Assembly (NCBI GenBank): GCA_001938485.1
Contig: MQRK01236875.1
Span: 14,134 to 65,562 of the forward strand
Direction: 5' to 3'
Origin: Girardia tigrina
Lineage: Eukaryota
Length of the DNA: 51,429 nt
Both the position numbers and the translations under genes were made by a program. The number at the start of each line of letters is the position of its first letter. Within the stretch, counting starts at the first letter, position 1. The notes under the pieces were generated by a model. The model ran no database searches, had not been told where the DNA came from, and saw only the letters and a program-made list of their open reading frames with translations. Positions 6,390 through 50,339 of this stretch are shown here, piece by piece.

Positions 6390-7613
6390 TTAGGTTGGTC
6401 GAAAAATAATGGCGGTTTTGGGACACAAACTTCAAAGACGTGCAAATTCACAGAAACAAAAGTTTATTAATAAAAGTATGAACCGTTGGCATCAATACAT
6501 TTTTGCCAACGAGAAACAAGTTGTTTTATTCCATCAGCATAAAATGCATCGGTTCTCGAAGCGACAAATTCTTGAAAAGCATTTTGAGCATCATTTTGGT
6601 TTTTGAAAATTTTTTCACGTAGGAAGTTGTACAAATGTCAGAAAAAGTAGAAGTCCGTTGGCGAAAAGTCTGGTGAATATGGTGGGTGAAGCAGGGTTTC
6701 ATAGCCCAACTCATTAAGCTTTTGAAGAGTCACTTTTGAAATATGATGTCTAGCGTTATCATGAAGAATGATGGAACTTTTTCGATTGACCAATCCCGGA
6801 CAAAGGGTTTTCAATTTTTTATGCATTTCATCAATTTCATAACAGCACCTCTCCGCTGTGATTGTTTCACCTGGATTCAAGAAACTATAGTGGATGATTC
6901 CAGCATCACACCACCAAACTGTCACCATAACCTTACGGGGTGTTAGTTNNNNNNNNNNNNNNNNNNNNNNNNNNNNNNNNNNNNNNNNNNNNNNNNNNNN
7001 NNNNNNNNNNNNNNNNNNNNNNNNNNNNNNNNNNNNNNNNNNNNNNNNNNNNNNNNNNNNNNNNNNNNNNNNNNNNNNNNNNNNNNNNNNNNNNNNNNNN
7101 NNNNNNNNNNNNNNNNNNNNNNNNNNNNNNNNNNNNNNNNNNNNNNNNNNNNNNNNNNNNNNNNNNNNNNNNNNNNNNNNNNNNNNNNNNNNNNNNNNNN
7201 NNNNNNNNNNNNNNNNNNNNNNNNNNNNNNNNNNNNNNNNNNNNNNNNNNNNNNNNNNNNNNNNNNNNNNNNNNNNNNNNNNNNNNNNNNNNNNNNNNNN
7301 NNNNNNNNNNNNNNNNNNNNNNNNCCCTTGCCAAACGCTTTATTGATATTGCGAGCCGTTTCTGCTGCTTTACGACCCAGTTTAAATTCGTACAAGAAAA
7401 TTGCTCGAATTTTAATTTTTTCCATTATTAATTTAACACCGTACATATTCTAAAAAATAACAGCAATATGTTAATAATGGCTATAGGAATATACAGCTAG
7501 GCATAAGATTTCAAATAATATCTAACACTAATGCATTTAAACTTATATACATATCAAAGTAGATAAACAAAGTATAAAGCTCAAAAACCGCCATTATTTT
7601 TCGACCAACCTAA
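6390..7613 (-). mobile_element. Mariner transposon, near full length (assembly gap inside)
   Basis: Perfect 30-bp TIRs TTAGGTTGGTCGAAAAATAATGGCGGTTTT flanked by TA. Transposase motifs IRAIFLYEFKLG, VWW, HDNAR, HPPYSPDFSPTDF, RWQKCIDANGSYF. Confidence 0.97.
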
Positions 7614-18314: not shown

Positions 18315-18753
18315 ACAGAGGGACAGATGGCGTGGTGGCGTGATGTACTTACCAGCCAATAGAAATCGAGCAAAAGTGGCATTGGTCCATGTAACATGTG
18401 AGCAACATAGAGGAAACTGTCATAGACAGTGTTTTCATTTTTCTTTAACACATGAAAGACGCAGTACGTTTTCAGCGTGCCATCATCTTTTTCCTTTGGA
18501 AAGAGGATACTCCAGTGTCTGACATTGTGCGCCACTTATCAAATGTGTTTCAAGGTAGAGCCCTGCAAAAGTCTGCCGTCTACAATTGGGTGCATCAATT
18601 CGTAAATGGACGTGTATCCTTGGACGACGAGGACAGGAGTGGACGTCCAGCAACGACGAGCACGGTAGAAAATGTGGAAAAAGTGTCGCAGACCATCAAT
18701 CCAAATCACTACCTTACCATTCGCGAGTTGGTGAAGATGACAGGCCTATCTGA
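18315..18753 (+). mobile_element. Mariner 5' fragment (HTH region)
   Basis: ORF 18452-18757: QRAIIFFLWKE...VYNWVHQFVNGRVSLDDEDRSGRP. Confidence 0.9.
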
Positions 18754-21700
18754 ATGACATTGTATTCCTTCAATAAATGCTTTCTTGTGGTGTCGTCTCC
18801 CATTTTTCCACTTACTTTCGGAACGCCCTTCGTATTATCCGGTTCGCGCTATGATGATATGAACTTGAAAAATGGATTGTCCTCATCATTGATTTTGCGT
18901 ATTTTCCAAAACTCTGGGACTCAAAAACTTTTCCTCTGTCTACGTTGCTATTTGCTGGAGCTCCGAATTTATATATCCACTTGTGTTGAAAGGTTTTTTT
19001 ATCACCGTAGCTTCATCTTGATTATTAACGGCCGTCAAACTAATATATCTACTGAATCTATCAATGATTCCCAAGATATACTTCTTTCCATGAACCGCTA
19101 GAAGTGGTCCACAGAAATCCATATAAATGTCATCTAACGAACGTGGTGACATCGATTAGCATGTTTTTTCTTTCGCTTTTTCCGGTATATGTATTCGATA
19201 TTTGACGTGTAGGGCAGCCTCGTACTACTGATTCCACCTCCTTAGCAAAATCGTCCATATAATATTCTTCCTTCATGGACGAATATATTTTATTTGCTCC
19301 AGCGTGGCATAAGAATTTATGAAAAAAATATAGTGCAATCCTTTCGAGACTGTTTTGGGATCCATATTTTGTTAGACGAAGTCCTTAAATATCCTTTGTC
19401 TAATTTAAATTCCATCGCCTTTCCGTCGTTTATTGATTGCAATATATTCGTAATTTCCTCTTTGTTCTGTTGTCACAGGATTGGTGAAACATATGTATCC
19501 AACGCTTACATTATCGTTCTTGGCTTGGTCAATTTGCTTGTTCATGCTGAAGCAGGCATTGTGTACATGTTTGACAATCTTTTCTTGAAAGTGCATCCGC
19601 GTTTTGATGCAATATGCCTTTTCTGTATTCTAACACCATATCGAGGCTACTGAAATAGTTCATCCAGTTCTGGAGTTGTGGTGTTAAGGGTTTCTTCATG
19701 ATCATAATGAATTCTATCGCTTTGTGATCGGTCCTCAGTTTAAAACTTGCACCATATAGGTAATGTTGGAAATGTTGTGTAAAATGAAAAATCGCCAATA
19801 ATTCTTTCCGAGTGATACAGTACCCCATTTCGTGTTTTGACATCGACTTTGACCCATATGCAACCACCTGCTCCTCACCCTACCTGATAGTAAGCGTTAC
19901 CTAAATCAACCTAACCGAACCACTTTGTACCTTTCAAAGCAGCCAACATCTCTTCGATATTTGGCATTGGGAATGCTGACCTCTCAGTAAGTTGATTTAA
20001 CAGTCTAAAATCTAGACAAAAACCGAATTTCTTTCTTTTCCTTCTTCCAAACACAAACCATTGGTGTGTTCCATGGGAGCGAGCATCTCTTTATTATCCA
20101 TGTTGTTCCAATTTTTGTAAGGCTTTTTCAATATGTCTGTCCAAATGAGCCGGTTGGTGCCGGTGTTTCTGTAATATCGGTTCCCCTGCAGTTTCAATCT
20201 GATGTTCGACCAACATCGTTTTCCGATATCCCATTTACCGGCCATGAATATATCTTTATATTTTTTCACACATTTATATAAATTTGTCCCAGTCTGTAGA
20301 CTCAATTTCTCTATCGCTCTTTCAAATCTCTGTTTGTTCGAATATTTGAATTTTCCTACATAAGGATCTAAAGCACTAATTTCAAAATTAGGTCTATTCA
20401 CTATGTTTTTTAGCTCCACCAACGTTGCCCCTTACATTTCAGCTCAATTCCTAAAGCACTAATCAAATTCATACCGAAAATAACATGGAAACATCTTCTT
20501 TGCTACATAAAATACAGTATTTATTTTCATAAGTCGCCAAACGACTTTTATTTTATCTTCATTCCACTTCCATTCGCACATACTACTGAAGTTAATAGCT
20601 TATTATCTACGGGAATTTGACATTTTTCGGCAATCTTCCTATCTAATACGTTAATGCGGGCCCCCGTGTCTAATAAACAGTTTACTTCAAACCCGTCAAT
20701 TTTAGCCGATAAACTGGGTCTTCCATTCAAAACTTGATAATAAAACTGCCCCTTGGACTGTATTATTAACTCTACTTCATGACGTTCATCATCCAGTGCT
20801 TGGTTAACATATCCATTATTCTCTATAGTTGCAATACTTTTACCACTTATAACAATGTTATTATTATACTTAAAATTTATATTATAAATATCATACATAT
20901 TATTAAAGTTATTATAAATACAATTACAGATACTACTATTACACATAAATGGATCGAAAATATTCTTACTACTTACTTTATACTCCCACCATCTCCTGAA
21001 CTGGTGGGGCCTCCAAATTTTAGTGGCCCGTTTGTCACCAATCCAAACGATCAGGATTCCTCATTGTCATCTAAACCAGTGACTTCTCGTCTGTATCGGT
21101 CCTGGGGTTTGTATCGACTTGGTCCTTGATTCCAGTGTGGGTTGTATGTCGTCGACCTTTGAAAGCACTGGTATCCCAAATGTCCATGATTATTACAAAC
21201 TGAACATTTTGTATATGGACAATCTCTCCAGATATGTCTGGTACCCCAACATCCATAACATATTTTGTTTATTTCCGGGTTGTCACGTCGAATGTGTCCC
21301 ACTTTTCTACAATTATAACAAATACGAGAATTACCTTTTGTTTTGCGAGTCTGATTTGGAGAAAATTTTGGAGTTGTTGCAAATCTATGTCGATCTCTCG
21401 TTTGATTGTTTGATTGGCCACTGATGTTCGATTGGACCGAGAATTGAGAACGGTCTTTCAACACAATGGCAAATGTTTTGTATTTACTGATAACTGCACT
21501 TTCACTATTTTTCACATCCGCTCTGATGTTCTCCATTTTCTCGATTACTGATTGAATTGCTTCTGGAGATTTCGCCTCTGCATCATGATTTGTATCTTCG
21601 TTTCGATATTCTCCACGCAGTGTGTCAGGAAGTAAGACATAAGTTCTTGCTTGTTCCACTTATGAATTAATATTTTCTCCACCATCTTTTCGACATTGTT

Positions 21701-29326: not shown

Positions 29327-30695
29327 TACATAGGTTTGCCTCATAATTTTTGTCGAAAACAAGACAAAAAACACGAAAATACAATAAAATATAAAATATA
29401 AAGAATATTTGATCAATCGTCTACGTCATGAAAATGCAAAAAGTAGTCGAAATTGTGCTCAATACATCTCAGACAACGTCCAGGGAGGCTGCGTATCCCA
29501 TTTTGGAAAAAAATCACTCGGTTTCTTGTGAAACCAATGAATAAGATTTTCATTGATATCAATGACACCGACATAATTCTATCCTCTAAGTGCACATTTC
29601 ATTGGAGAGAATAGATAGCAGTCAGATGGTGAGAGATCGGGGCAGTATGATTGATGTGGTAGTACAGTGAATCCAAGAGCATTCAGCTTGTCATTGGTCT
29701 TAGCAGCCGTATTCGGATGAGCATTATCGTGGAGATAATGAACATTGTGGTTTCCTCCATTAAGCAACCGTCTGCGCCTCTACTGAACGGCGATAATGAG
29801 ACGATCCAGCTGAGTAGAGTAGACATCCGCATTGATTGTAGCATTTAGAGGTATGATATCTAACAAGAACAGTTCTTTACTGTCCCGAAAGACGGAGGCG
29901 AGATGTTTTTGGTTTGTCAGTCTTTGTGCTGGTGTTGGAAAAGTGTTTTCATGCTATTTTTTCCATTGTTGAAAGCACATTTATTGTCCCAGTACACTCA
30001 TATCTCATTGCAGATGATGATTTGGGACAGGAAATCATTCCAGTGATAACTATCCAATAGCTTTTGACAAATTCTTTTGCGATTATCCTTGTTCTGTTGC
30101 GTCAGAAAGTGTGGCACTCAGCAATTTTCCAGGTATAGGTATCCCATTGCATTCAAGTGCCGGCATACCGTGGTTTTATCCTGATCAATTCCCTCTACAA
30201 TGTTCCTCGTTGTTGCACGCTTGTCTTCAGTCAGAAACTTGATTATCTTCTCGTCTATGTCAAGAGAGGGCCGCCATTCGCGTACTTGATAGTCTGTGTT
30301 AAAGTTATTTTCACAAAAATTGGAAATCCACCTTTCACACGTTTTCTTTGAGACTGTTCGAACTCCAAAGGCCGTGGTAATTTTGTCAGTCATCTGTGAG
30401 GGTGGTACATCCCTTTTTCAGCAATATTAATTAATTTACGAATATCAGAGCAATTAAAGTTCATTGCGATGAAGAAAGTGTGCGAAATTTACGAAAATGC
30501 TATTATTTTATTAAAAAAAATTCAATTGGAACAGAAAATAATTATTATTGGACATAAGTAAATCGCAAATGCTATTTTATCTAATTTACATTTTATTAGG
30601 GATTGCAAATATATAAGAATTATTTATGTGATGGAAGGATATCTGCAGTTAACATCGATATATATGTGCGACAAAACTTATGAGGCAACCATATA
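29327..30695 (-). mobile_element. Full-length degenerate mariner
   Basis: TIRs ..GGTTTGCCTCATAATTTTTGTCG / CGACAAAACTTATGAGGCAACC; motifs *VPH, HDNAHPNTA, YCPDLSPSD. Confidence 0.93.
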
Positions 30696-41516: not shown

Positions 41517-42470
41517 CTAATAAAACTTAATTATTTTTTAATTTTGTCATTAAGATTTGGAAACTATGATCTCAGACATGTTAAAATGATTATTTTAAAG
41601 CAAAAGTATGTTTAACCTCTGATTTAATAATAGGCTGTTTGGTGGTCTATTTTAGCAATGCAGCTCAGTGATGGTTAAGCATCAAAGTTGGTGGCCACGA
41701 AACAGTCGTTTTGTTGAAAGTATTCAACTCATAAAGGCTATTATTATTGTAATGTAATTATCATTTAATAATTAATTAACTAACTTAATATAATTGGTCG
41801 CGCTGTGATTACTTTGGACCCATTTTTTTTGAACCCATTTTATAAATTAAAATAAAATTAAACTAAAATAATTAAATTAAATTAAAAAAAATCATTTAAA
41901 TTAATTAAATTAAATATATATAAGTATATATATATATAAATAAATATATGTGAAATCATCACGTTCATATGGTTTTGTGATGACGCATAAACCATATGAA
42001 TTAATGTTTCAACTTCAAGATAGTCATTGAATTTTTCCAATACATCGAAATCAATTCACTCAACTCATTCAAATTTAGTCGATTGATTATCTCTGATATA
42101 ATTAATCTGCAATTTTATCGAGATATTACATTTAAGCAGTGGATCGATTTGTATCAGTGAATTATGTGATAATAACAATTGTGAGCCTCATTTTTTTCTG
42201 TTTTTGTGTGTTTCTTTGTTTGTGATTACCATTTCCATTTAAATTGTCCAATCACATAGTGTAATTGGATGATAGTGTGTATGTGAATGGATTCATTAAT
42301 TACCATATGATTGGTTAAAAGTGTGTATGTATGTGTGTGCAAAATTTTGTGAGAATTAATCACAATTAACAATGCTGCAATAAAAAATGATTTTGAAATG
42401 TGAATATAATTCACAATTTTGTTTAAACCAAATAAAAATTTTGAAAATAAAACTTGCTATTTTTGATGAA

Positions 42471-43076
42471 ATGAGTGAATCACGAGTTTGTGAATTGTAC
42501 AATGCCATTATTCAAACTTCAGATACCGGCAAAAAAGTCGAATTAATTAATAAAATTAAAGAATTAATTGTGAATAAAGATTCACTGATTAAATTATGTA
42601 TTCCGATGGGAACAGCAGTAACTGCCAAATTTAAGGGTGCATTTTGTGAAGCTTTGGTGAATAATGTCGAGCGAATTTTTCTTTGCCGAATTCAATTAAT
42701 TGATAATAAAAAAACCGTAAAAGTCAATGCGGAAGATGTAATTGGCAGTGTGTCAGTAAATAATAAAGTNNNNNNNNNNNNNNNNNNNNNNNNNNNNNNN
42801 NNNNNNNNNNNNNNNNNNNNNNNNNNNNNNNNNNNNNNNNNNNNNNNNNNNNNNNNNNNNNNNNNNNNNNNNNNNNNNNNNNNNNNNNNNNNNNNNNNNN
42901 NNNNNNNNNNNNNNNNNNNNNNNNNNNNNNNNNNNNNNNNNGAAGGTGAATATTTCAGTATGATCGCTTCATTCATTAAAGCTGAAAAAGATTATCATCA
43001 TAACACCGCTGATATTTTTGAATCTCTGTTTTCAAATTTAAGAGATTATCATCATAACATCACTGATATTTTTTGA
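42471..43076 (+). CDS. Chimeric ORF: symplekin-like N-terminus, ARID4-like Tudor domain, RICH/ARHGAP17-like BAR helix
   Basis: SESRVCELYN...KIKELIVNKD ~ symplekin SERVVDLLN...VQELIINKD; GTAVTAKFKGAFCEA ~ ARID4 GTDVSAKYRGAFCEA; EGEYF...KAEKDYH ~ ARHGAP17 EGEYG...EAQADYH. An N gap precedes the third piece. Confidence 0.75.
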   Translation: MSESRVCELYNAIIQTSDTGKKVELINKIKELIVNKDSLIKLCIPMGTAVTAKFKGAFCEALVNNVERIFLCRIQLIDNKKTVKVNAEDVIGSVSVNNKXXXXXXXXXXXXXXXXXXXXXXXXXXXXXXXXXXXXXXXXXXXXXXXXXXXXXXXXXXEGEYFSMIASFIKAEKDYHHNTADIFESLFSNLRDYHHNITDIF

Positions 43077-43862
43077 ATCTCTATTTTCAAATTCAATAAA
43101 AAAGCGAGATGTAGCAAATTCAAATAAATCAGCTACCAGTTCGAGTGTAGAAAAGGAAGTGAAATTCGCATTGAGTCTTGCTCTTAAACTCATAGAGTTG
43201 AATCAAATCGAAATCNNNNNNNNNNNNNNNNNNNNNNNNNNNNNNNNNNNNNNNNNNNNNNNNNNNNNNNNNNNNNNNNNNNNNNNNNNNNNNNNNNNNN
43301 NNNNNNNNNNNNNNNNNNNNNNNNNNNNNNNNNNNNNNNNNNNNNNNNNNNNNNNNNNNNNNNNNNNNNNNNNNNNNNNNNNNNNNNNNNNNNNNNNNNN
43401 NNNNNNNNNNNNNNNNNNNNNNNNNNNNNNNNNNNNNNNNNNNNNNNNNNNNNNNNNNNNNNNNNNNNNNNNNNNNNNNNNNNNNNNNNNNNNNNNNNNN
43501 NNNNNNNNNNNNNNNNNNNNNNNNNNNNNNNNNNNNNNNNNNNNNNNNNNNNNNNNNNNNNNNNNNNNNNNNNNNNNNNNNNNNNNNNNNNNNNNNNNNN
43601 NNNNNNNNNNNNNNNNNNNNNNNNNNNNNNNNNNNNNNNNNNNNNNNNNNNNNNNNNNNNNNNNNNNNNNNNNNNNNNNNNNNNNNNNNNNNNNNNNNNN
43701 NNNNNNNNNNNNNNNNNNNNNNNNNNNNNNNNNNNNNNNNNNNNNNNNNNNNNNNNNNNNNNNNNNNNNNNNNNNNNNNNNNNNNNNNNNNNNNNNNNNN
43801 NNNNNNNNNNNNNNNNNNNNNNNNNNNNNNNNNNNNNNNNNNNNNNNNNNNNNNNNNNNNNN

Positions 43863-44337
43863 CATTTTATATATGAAAGATATGAAATTCCTGTTTGATA
43901 TAATTTTGAAATCATTTGATCACATTTCTCAAAATATACAATTTAAAAAATCAAGAACCTCTGCGGAGATACAACAATAATTAAGATCTTATTTGTAGTT
44001 ACGTATCTTCAGTTTTATTTTGGTGTACTCGAAATGTGTTTCTGATTGTTCGGGATGCTACTTATGATGCTTTTCAGATTTTATAAACCCATTTGACAAT
44101 CCAAGTTTATCCATTCCTGGAATCGGTCTTTTCCATTCATTTATCATTCTGTTAGTGTAAAATTGATTGATAATCCTTTAAGGAATGATCTGCTAGAAGA
44201 ATTCGGTTATTAATCTTTAGTATAGCTACAAAATTGGATATTTAATAAACAAATCAATTAAAAAATAATTACCGAAAATTTCTGAAAATTATTTTCCATG
44301 AATTCATTATCTGGAATGACAATTTATTTTCCTTCCT
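43863..44337 (-). CDS. Candidate host gene, possibly USP-like, with in-frame TAA/TAG/TGA
   Basis: A 47-nt intron GTAATT...TTGTAG joins FMENNFQKFS to LY*RLITEFF*QIIP*RIINQFYTNRMINEWKRPIPG. Distal LNCIF*EM*SNDFKIISNRNF resembles the USP ..LW(S/T)G...ISP..F helix. Confidence 0.35.
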
Positions 44338-48179: not shown

Positions 48180-50339
48180 TTGACACTCGAAATAAGCCTG
48201 ACACATGAAATGCTTCTTTAAGATAGTTTGAATTGATGTTATAAAGTCCACGAACCGGTGCTAGATTGCTATCAATAGATCTTCGTATTTACATAAAAAC
48301 AAATTTGTTGGTTGAAAGTTTTCTTCAGATTCGTTTTAGTAAAAAGTTTTTTCTTTTGTCTTAGTCATTAGGGTCTTTCCTTTTTGTCATAAGAAACCAC
48401 TTTTAAAAAGCTCTTTTAATAACTATTCTCCATGTCGAAATCGACTCGAAGATACAGTAGCGTGCAAAAGTCTGTTGACAGTAAAAAAATCCCAATTTTC
48501 CCACTTAAGCCATGAGTTTATAAGGTGGCAAGCTTAAATTTTGACCAGATATGTAATTTATTTTAAGCTTTTACGCTAAATAAATCTTTTTTTAATTTTG
48601 TTAATATTTTTATGACGAACATTCAATTTTCAAATTTACCAGTGGGAAATTCATAAAATTCATTGTTTCAATAAAGTAAATGCTAATTAAATTTAAGTAT
48701 TCATTTAAATATTAATTTTAAGTATTAAAAATAAAGTAATATTTAGGATGACCTCAGGCCGAGAAACGACAGAAGATATAAAGAAATTGATTGTTGGTGC
48801 TTATCTTATATGGAAAAAATCATATAGAGAAATTGCATCGCTTTATAATGTTAGCAAGTCTGCAATCGGTAGTCTTGTCAAGAGATACAATCAGCGTCAT
48901 ACCATAGACATCAAGTCACGCTGTGGAAGACCCCTGAAAGAATGCTGTTGAATGGAATAAAATAAAGAGAAAGGACTATAATGTTAAGTGTAGTGTTGAA
49001 ACTAGAAAACGTGGTCTTCGGAAAACAAATTTATTTGGTCGTCGACAAGCAAAAAAACCTTTGATCTCGGTAAATAATCAAAAGACCCGGTGTGTGATAG
49101 TTTTGTATTGGCCAAATGTGTTATTATACTGATTGTCACCAGTGTCAAACCTGGTACAGTTGACAGAACACAACGTTCTCTCAGATTTCCATTTGGTCAG
49201 ATATTTCAGTCAAATTGCATCGATGAGATTTCGGATTGTTTTGGATTTGATGGGAAGGCTATAAATAATCATCTACCTACGGTAAAACATGGAGGTGGTA
49301 ATGTGTTGGTTTTGGGTGCCTTTAGCCGTGAGATAGTTGGTTAAATACATCGCATGGAGGGCATAATGGATCAATCTTTGTACAAGGATATCATCGGTAC
49401 TAAAATGTTACTTTTTGCAAAAGATAAAATGCCATGAGATTGGGTATTTCAACAGGATAATGATTCAAAGCACACGACCAAAACAGTACAGGATTTTTTC
49501 AAAGCTAATAAAATTCTTGTTTTGAAGTGGCCATCGCAAATTCCGTACTTAAATCATATTGAGCATATTTTGGAATATATCGATCGTCATTTGAAAGGCA
49601 ATAAGCTCAAAAATAAGGACGAACTCTACGAAAATATTCAAGATATTTGGAACAGCATTCCTTTGGATGTGATTAACAAATTAGGTCATTGTAAAGCAGT
49701 TTTAGTTTCGAAAGGTTATGCTGCAAAATTTTAATAAAATTTACAATTTCTATCAATCATATTCAAAAATATTTGTTTTTTTTAATAAATTTTTGAATTG
49801 TTCATTGACTTTTGCACGGGTTAAAATTTGAAAATTGAATGTTCATCAAAAAGATATTAACAAAATTAAAAAAAGATTTATTTAGCGTAAAAGCTTAAAA
49901 TAAATTACATATCTGGTCAAAATTTAAGCTTGCCACCTTATAAACTCATGGCTTAAGTGGGAAAATTGGGATTATTTTACTGTCCACAGACTTTTGCACG
50001 TTAGTGTAGTTGTAGATCTTTTTTGATTAGATCTTTTTAGAATGACACAAAATCCTGCGTAAATCTTAAATAAAATCTGTCTTTCACGTTTCGAGAATTA
50101 AAAATTTATTGTCTTGGGCTTCTTTGTTTCAATTTTCACTTCTTAAAACTTTCTCTTCTGATATTTTCTATTTTTACTTTTACATCGTCCTTGTCTTTCT
50201 TCTATTTCAATCCATCTGATGTTTTGTTAAATGCAAAATTTTTCGTCTTTATTTCCCTTTGATAACAAATTTCACAAGAATTTTTGTAATTTACAATGGT
50301 ATTAAAATGTCTTTCCTATTTTTGATATTCCATACTCAT
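48180..50339 (-). CDS. Candidate host exon split by the Tc1 insertion
   Basis: Removing 48455-50006 and one TA gives about 200 in-frame codons: MSMEYQK*ERHF...IRRESFKK*KLKQR...KKDLQL|SSSRFRHGE*LLKELFKSGFL*QKGK...LIAI*HRFVDFITSIQTILKKHFMCQAYFECQ, then GTAAAC. Confidence 0.4.
48455..50006 (+). mobile_element. Tc1-family transposon with long TIRs
   Basis: TA-CAGTAGCGTGCAAAAGTC ... GACTTTTGCACGTTAGTG-TA; about 183-bp TIRs; TVKHGGG, FQQDND, WPSQ.P.LN.IE motifs; frameshifted. Confidence 0.97.

Follow-up and report, generated by a model that had tools for sequence, protein, structure and literature searches.

Spliced host mRNA mosaics inside the LTR of a Girardia tigrina BEL/Pao retrotransposon: a candidate in-frame leader of ubiquitin-Gag

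Several described systems resemble parts of the element reported here, and what is said of them rests on partial text of the papers cited. Animal LTR-mediated retrocopies contain partial spliced mRNAs with microsimilarity at the switch points, several parents per chimera and later amplification (Tan et al. 2016, PMC5131818), and one mosquito case involves a BEL element (PMC5131818). The maize LTR element Bs1 carries a chimeric ORF made from three spliced host genes (PMC5131818, PMC13317346), and in BARE-2 foreign sequence entered the LTR through abnormal template switching (PMC13317346). The 5' UTR of Ty1 covers nucleotides 1-53 and its primer site nucleotides 95-104 (PMC5454406). Planarian Burro/GYPSM1 is a giant Gypsy element of more than 30 kb with host-like domains in its polyprotein, including a ubiquitin/SUMO-like one (PMC6431247). 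In cytopathic pestiviruses a captured ubiquitin in the polyprotein, with other host sequence upstream, is a host-cleaved signal that gives an authentic N-terminus (PMC8310069).

We analysed a window of 51,429 nucleotides from Girardia tigrina (assembly GCA_001938485.1, contig MQRK01236875.1, positions 14,134 to 65,562 of the forward strand) together with related copies across the assembly. LTR-mediated gene capture is known; what appears to be new is that host mosaics lie inside the LTR, between polypurine tract and primer site, and in frame with ubiquitin-Gag.

Ends, copies and interior of the element

Positions 41795-43976 of the window are almost certainly a solo LTR of a BEL/Pao retrotransposon, loaded by capture from RNA. 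Its ends and flanks are as follows.

41790..41794, no strand: left TSD, 5 bp, same letters as 43977-43981
41795..43976, + strand: LTR with TG...CA ends, almost certainly solo and BEL/Pao, from shared ends, TSD, and the primer site and polypurine tract of full copies
43953..43976, + strand: conserved 24-nt LTR 3' end, reading RTSAEIQ in the Gag frame; pairing with the primer site is possible in full elements
43977..43981, no strand: right TSD, 5 bp, same letters as 41790-41794

Family copies share the 5' end at 41795 and the 24-nt 3' end at 43953-43976. Exact patterns for these ends were searched in the AT-rich 1.43 Gb assembly (255,254 contigs) and gave 1055 5' ends and 1003 3' ends, against 0 for reversed-pattern controls; repeats are collapsed in the assembly, and the copy, primer-site and polypurine counts are lower bounds. 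The 35 distinct units with both ends measure 630-2968 bp (median 2052). LTRs are flanked by TSDs of 4-6 bp. An exact 5-bp TSD flanks 24 of the 35 units, which are all of the lone copies with both ends, and the remaining 11 adjoin a primer site or polypurine tract. The 3' end fits YNYAACA of the LTR end consensus (PMC3601003, partial text), and the 5' end agrees with that consensus in TG only.

The primer site occurs at a fixed spacing 3' of the LTR end in 35 places, near-duplicate contigs included. The motif that runs into the polypurine tract has 61 matches genome-wide, and the tract was seen adjoining the LTR 5' end. Both are absent from the window and from the 8 kb upstream, which makes the window copy solo. 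Flanks sampled initially had suggested a repeat-less DNA element, since the primer site was present in 0 of 44 3' flanks and the polypurine tract in 1 of 56 5' flanks; targeted patterns overturned this. The primer site also has 13 matches in incomplete tRNA-like copies that carry a CAT loop, and in the five of these loci that were read neither ARAGORN nor Rfam found a whole tRNA. Loci L343-L347 hold scattered partial initiator-tRNA-like 3' halves, one with a CCA end, and L346 holds a 5.8S rRNA relic.

Paired LTRs of one provirus are 98% identical over 162 nt, up to a gap, in C255193, and 97% over 185 nt in L323. In provirus L281 (G000:C182088, minus strand) the 5-bp TSD matches, the two LTRs share only their 5' ~560 nt (87-89%), and the cargo differs. 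No intact LTR pair with identical cargo was seen among the proviruses examined, which contain assembly gaps. At L196 two family LTRs lie in opposite orientation within 8.5 kb, one with ThiF/PWWP cargo and the other with a GIY-YIG-like frame inside it.

BEL/Pao elements are marked by DUF1759, DUF1758, RT, Peptidase_A17, integrase and DUF5641, and their Gag usually carries CCHC zinc knuckles. From primer site to polypurine tract, the interior of this family reads ubiquitin, DUF1759, CCCH fingers, DUF1758, RVT_1, Peptidase_A17, rve and DUF5641 (Pfam), an order of Gag-PR-RT-RH-IN and of BEL/Pao type; the place usual for CCHC knuckles is taken by CCCH fingers (L197:3486-4445). The integrase is 46-49% identical to BEL/Pao polyproteins among the best matches listed. 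All interior copies seen are broken frames, and the pol part is missing from many. In a common derivative, seen in five interiors (L165, L174, L195, L312, L323), ubiquitin-Gag is retained and a long coiled-coil-like frame replaces RT and integrase. A protein search with Gag alone found no match, which is weak evidence, and matches to a 638-codon frame of L313 were dominated by polyubiquitin; that frame does not belong wholly to the element, its LTR being interrupted by another repeat. The remainder of the window is transposon-rich, with Gypsy pol- and Tc1/mariner transposase-like fragments recognised by eye at 19532-20431 (-), 18449-18754, 30121-30417, 6641-6946 and 49438-49731.

The left half of the LTR holds the following features.

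41795..41954, + strand: conserved AT-rich 5' part, probably U3-like, with overlapping TATAAA/AATAAA at 41935-41944
41955..41984, no strand: family-wide stem-loop, pairing retained in 69/73 copies, with one compensatory change (AC/GT versus GC/GC)
41964..42000, no strand: 12-bp stem, 41964-41975/41989-42000, an alternative fold of one subfamily (15/73 copies)
42180..42470, no strand: putative promoter-like middle, with TG repeats and CCAAT-like boxes

In 62 of 83 copies TATAAA and AATAAA both precede the hairpin by at most 40 nt, and dual-role motifs are described (PMC3601003, partial text). Any placement of the U3, R and U5 borders within the LTR is a guess. The 12-bp stem reported in the earlier note is present, but it is confined to the subfamily listed above, the family-wide stem being shorter. 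A leftward ATG at 42191 is common to copies and opens just 9 codons in the window copy. In L226 pairing between the LTR end and the primer site is possible and a second strong hairpin follows, which may explain why only ~24 nt are fixed.

Host pieces, their parents and their junctions

The cargo of the window LTR comprises symplekin, ARID4, an LSM12 remnant, endophilin A, Hsp90, two further host pieces and antisense MAT1.

41995..42070, - strand: MAT1 (MNAT1) fragment, antisense to the element, from sister cargo and an RNA-type contig
42471..42583, + strand: symplekin codons 1-38, spliced, first intron gone at 42485/42486; parent G000:C166699
42577..42769, + strand: ARID4 Tudor piece, in frame after symplekin; parent G000:C225563
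42770..42941, + strand: 172-N assembly gap; 172 nt in sisters L032 and L033, holding the remaining, spliced part of the ARID4 Tudor and a short remnant of LSM12, probably also in the window copy
42942..43142, + strand: BAR tail and linker of endophilin A, with splice points at 42944/42945 and 43103/43104; parent G000:C239585
43138..43215, + strand: further host mRNA piece (43138-43206), then Hsp90 lead-in; RNA-type contigs match 43138-43206 and then run into other sequence
43216..43875, + strand: 647-N gap, probably the Hsp90 N-terminal domain found in sisters L043, L048, L050 and L333; last codons visible at 43863-43875
43876..43952, + strand: second further host piece; a 1992-nt contig matches 43876-43944

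For symplekin, ARID4 and endophilin A, parent genes carrying GT-AG introns were located, and the three splice points listed are removed introns within the window's own sequence. Five longer cargos lack the GT-AG introns of the symplekin gene C166699, of which C69213 is a second copy; the window piece is 37/39 identical to a longer sister cargo, which matches symplekin structures (E 2e-21). The ARID4 Tudor piece matches ARID4A/B (E 3e-5), and four introns of its parent are absent from cargos L150 and L152. For MAT1, a longer sister cargo matches the Pfam family (E 4e-11) and a 1017-nt RNA-type contig matches 41995-42057; a genomic parent was not found, the candidates read being LTR copies. Pfam gave nothing useful on the window's own three pieces. 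Because the parental introns of symplekin, ARID4 and endophilin are absent from cargo, the capture must almost certainly have been from RNA.

The earlier note had described a chimera of three host fragments here, which is real and larger than it appeared, the element ends, antisense MAT1 and the Hsp90 piece having been overlooked. Its contiguous, in-frame fusion of symplekin to the ARID4 Tudor was borne out, and the same junction in contigs L003 and L022 shows that it did not arise in assembly. The 54-bp tandem duplication was likewise confirmed, within the endophilin piece (42986-43039/43040-43094). Its attribution of the BAR helix to a RICH/RhoGAP gene was wrong, the source being endophilin A. 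The parent C239585 also has BAR-family matches, one more of its introns is missing from sister L032, that sister continues into an SH3 domain with endophilin A as nearest relative, and the RNA-type contig matching the piece (1074 nt) is too short for a RhoGAP gene. The parent exon was located by motif; a BAR family search (30 loci) did not bring it. Several long intronless BAR or BAR-SH3 endophilin-like frames, possible retrogenes, lie apart from the intron-bearing parent (L233-L248). To judge by its letters, the window copy is now decaying, since its frame breaks near 43070-43076, within the endophilin piece.

RNA evidence consists of assembled contigs from five different runs out of 11 listed, most of them only presumed RNA. 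No listed RNA-type record bridges the symplekin-ARID4 junction. A 706-nt metatranscriptome record spans endophilin into the Hsp90 lead-in, and an 890-nt record covers Gag, ubiquitin and the primer site but has just 25 aligned LTR bases (below the 31-base rule); each is only a hint of transcription.

Cargo varies between copies, with dozens of exchangeable mosaics inside the LTR. In Pfam scans of 47 and 21 frames, many of them without any family, matches at or near the cut-off were SYMPK_PTA1_N, AD (LSM12), SH3, actin-like, FERM, ubiquitin-like, MAT1, CH_2, RNA_pol_N, Nop, Prenyltransf and INPP5B_PH; we take the actin-like cargo to be Arp6. Several mosaics start at the host start codon and some include 5' UTR (~50 nt for ARID4). 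In the left arm of L304 an antisense piece resembles the P-loop of an ARF GTPase.

Microhomology was found at three junctions for which both donors are at hand: 7 nt for symplekin-ARID4 (42577-42583), 11 nt for ARID4-LSM12 and 5 nt for ARID4-Arp6, the donor for the latter two being an LTR copy. Random symplekin/ARID4 joints share at least 7 nt with p ~0.0007 and 5 nt with p 0.007. Pieces of the mosaic were likely added by template switches of reverse transcriptase. The enzyme, copying the long 3' LTR part, would jump to a co-packaged host mRNA and then back, or to a sister element, where a few bases match. Most of the LTR would be U5, copied in strong-stop steps, if a short R is marked by the stem-loop and the overlap of TATAAA and AATAAA near 41935-41984. 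A minus-strand jump to host mRNA would yield sense cargo and favour mRNA 5' ends, whereas a plus-strand jump would yield antisense cargo and differences between 5' and 3' LTRs, as in L281. LTR-LTR recombination would then leave the ~1000 solo copies.

The frame into ubiquitin and Gag

A single frame runs through the LTR end, the primer site, a hydrophobic stretch, ubiquitin and Gag. We counted open frames upstream of ends with 300 N-free bases, 45 of the 108 distinct ends. The Gag frame is open for at least 60 codons in 35 of these 45, the other frames in 0/45; the +1 control frame contains a stop inside the conserved LTR end. Grouping the ends into 20 clusters, two of which were dropped for N or contig edge, left 18 scorable end types, and 15 of them have an open member (p ~5e-5 if independent, a value that is too small given that end types share history). 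Open frames free of gaps reach 381 and 510 codons. As a control, the left arm is open antisense for at least 60 codons in only 11/52 entries and in varying frames, and so is not locked.

Ubiquitin ends GG|M directly before Gag in 18/19 copies, and five different in-frame spacings separate LTR and Gag. Of 27 ends followed by a primer site, the frame continues into ubiquitin in nine, meets a stop ahead of it in 13 and is cut by gaps or edges in five. From LTR end to Gag ATG, 8 of 12 copies are in frame and 6 of 12 free of stops. Stops before ubiquitin (13/22 scorable) and out-of-frame spacings (4/12) may reflect decay, undated. Ubiquitin-Gag could also be initiated, free of the leader, at a Met ~30 codons past the LTR end.

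A distant BEL/Pao polyprotein, P0131, has the same order of leader, ubiquitin, GG and Gag and is 40% identical over 263 aa; it carries one and a half ubiquitin units before Gag, both ending GG. Among 42 near-full-length relatives, P0131 alone joins leader, ubiquitin and GG to a homologous Gag. Judged from these relatives, the ubiquitin-Gag arrangement reaches beyond the G. tigrina genome and is not general in BEL/Pao.

We infer, with a probability of roughly two in three, that the mosaic is kept in frame as the leader of a ubiquitin-Gag polyprotein, which host deubiquitinases are predicted to cut. The ribosome would meet the captured start codon first, and pieces that are out of frame or bear stops would silence Gag and hence be lost. 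Cleavage after GG would give Gag a constant N-terminus whatever lies upstream, leaving the leader free to change.

The same LTR and the same RNA capture are compatible with a frame lock that merely protects the RNA, by avoiding NMD or inhibitory uORFs, with Gag made mostly from the Met that follows the primer site and little translation of the mosaic. The conservation of that Met in most copies agrees with this, as do the 13 scorable ends that stop before ubiquitin; yet length changes upstream of the Met preserve frame, L281 has no Met at that place and is open for 281 codons, and the GG of ubiquitin is retained. We regard RNA protection alone as unlikely. Selection might instead act on the mosaics themselves, if released fragments of host domains (Hsp90, SH3, Tudor, FERM, Arp6) or small RNAs from the cargo affect the host or protect the element. 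Some modules do recur in dozens of copies, and host pieces occur in both sense and antisense. Most pieces are however partial domains, such as half an SH3 or one helix pair, swapped freely and with no common function, and we consider such selection quite improbable.

The vehicle proposed in the earlier note, a Helitron or Pack-type DNA element that captured genomic gene fragments, draws on the unit being multicopy, on the mixture of its fragments and on the hairpin close to one of its ends. Capture or exon shuffling by a multicopy element was right, and the searches it had called for gave three parents, ~1000 ends of each kind and a 5-bp TSD. Helitrons have no TSD, a 5' TC, and a 3' hairpin with CTRR, hallmarks not found at the ends of the LTR unit, which has a 5-bp TSD; a Pack-TIR element is opposed by the lack of inverted ends beyond TG/CA. 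A DNA vehicle is very improbable because of the TSD, TG...CA ends, primer site, polypurine tract and Gag-PR-RT-RH-IN interior, and removed introns are not predicted by DNA capture. Misassembly, or a single conserved protein behind the whole ORF, is barely credible. The assembly is from short reads and has gaps inside the unit, but junctions repeat in independent contigs with other flanks, and separate intron-bearing parents rule out one protein. The reading we prefer is a BEL/Pao LTR whose mosaic probably serves as a leader of ubiquitin-Gag.

Meaning and comparison with known systems

Such a leader would provide a rule for why captured pieces have sense orientation and keep the frame: the element would need that frame for its own Gag, and the ubiquitin cut would remove the cost. 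LTR-mediated exon shuffling would become a running, countable process rather than a rare accident, a single genome offering hundreds of dated junctions. The ~1000 loci carrying housekeeping gene pieces of 94-99% identity can mislead gene annotation, read mapping and RNAi, and small RNAs directed at host mRNAs are a candidate product of the cargo loci. A broader proposal, which we hold to be speculative and rather doubtful, is that the LTR is an evolvable coding cassette under selection, in which in-frame mosaics of host domains are freed by ubiquitin cleavage, and which has seeded ~1000 promoter-bearing chimeric ORFs, some maybe used by the host.

We found no description in the literature searched of host mRNA mosaics within an LTR in frame with ubiquitin-Gag; the supplements of Tan et al. 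2016, Repbase and subscription papers (original Burro, Bs1) could hold one. As far as the partial text of these sources goes, Ty1 is like the G. tigrina element in that its Gag frame passes through the initiator-Met primer site, and unlike it in having a short, fixed leader without host cargo or ubiquitin. Burro/GYPSM1 is likewise a flatworm LTR element with host-like domains, but its extra domains are interior and downstream of Gag, whereas the G. tigrina element is BEL/Pao and its cargo is variable and in the LTR. The BARE-2 insert comes from another retrotransposon and acts as a promoter, while the insert here is host coding sequence. Pestiviruses are RNA viruses in which sporadic recombinants arise and cleavage is shown; in the G. 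tigrina element cleavage is only predicted. Bs1, as excerpted, is one fixed chimera between LTRs in 1-5 copies, with one piece out of frame, in contrast to dozens of exchangeable mosaics in the LTR. The retrocopies of Tan et al. 2016 come close, sharing spliced partial mRNAs with microsimilarity at the junctions; in the parts of that paper available, the retrocopy lies between two LTRs and replaces part of the internal ORFs, whereas the G. tigrina cargo sits within the LTR itself, precedes Gag in the Gag frame, and is spread in ~1000 copies via solo LTRs.
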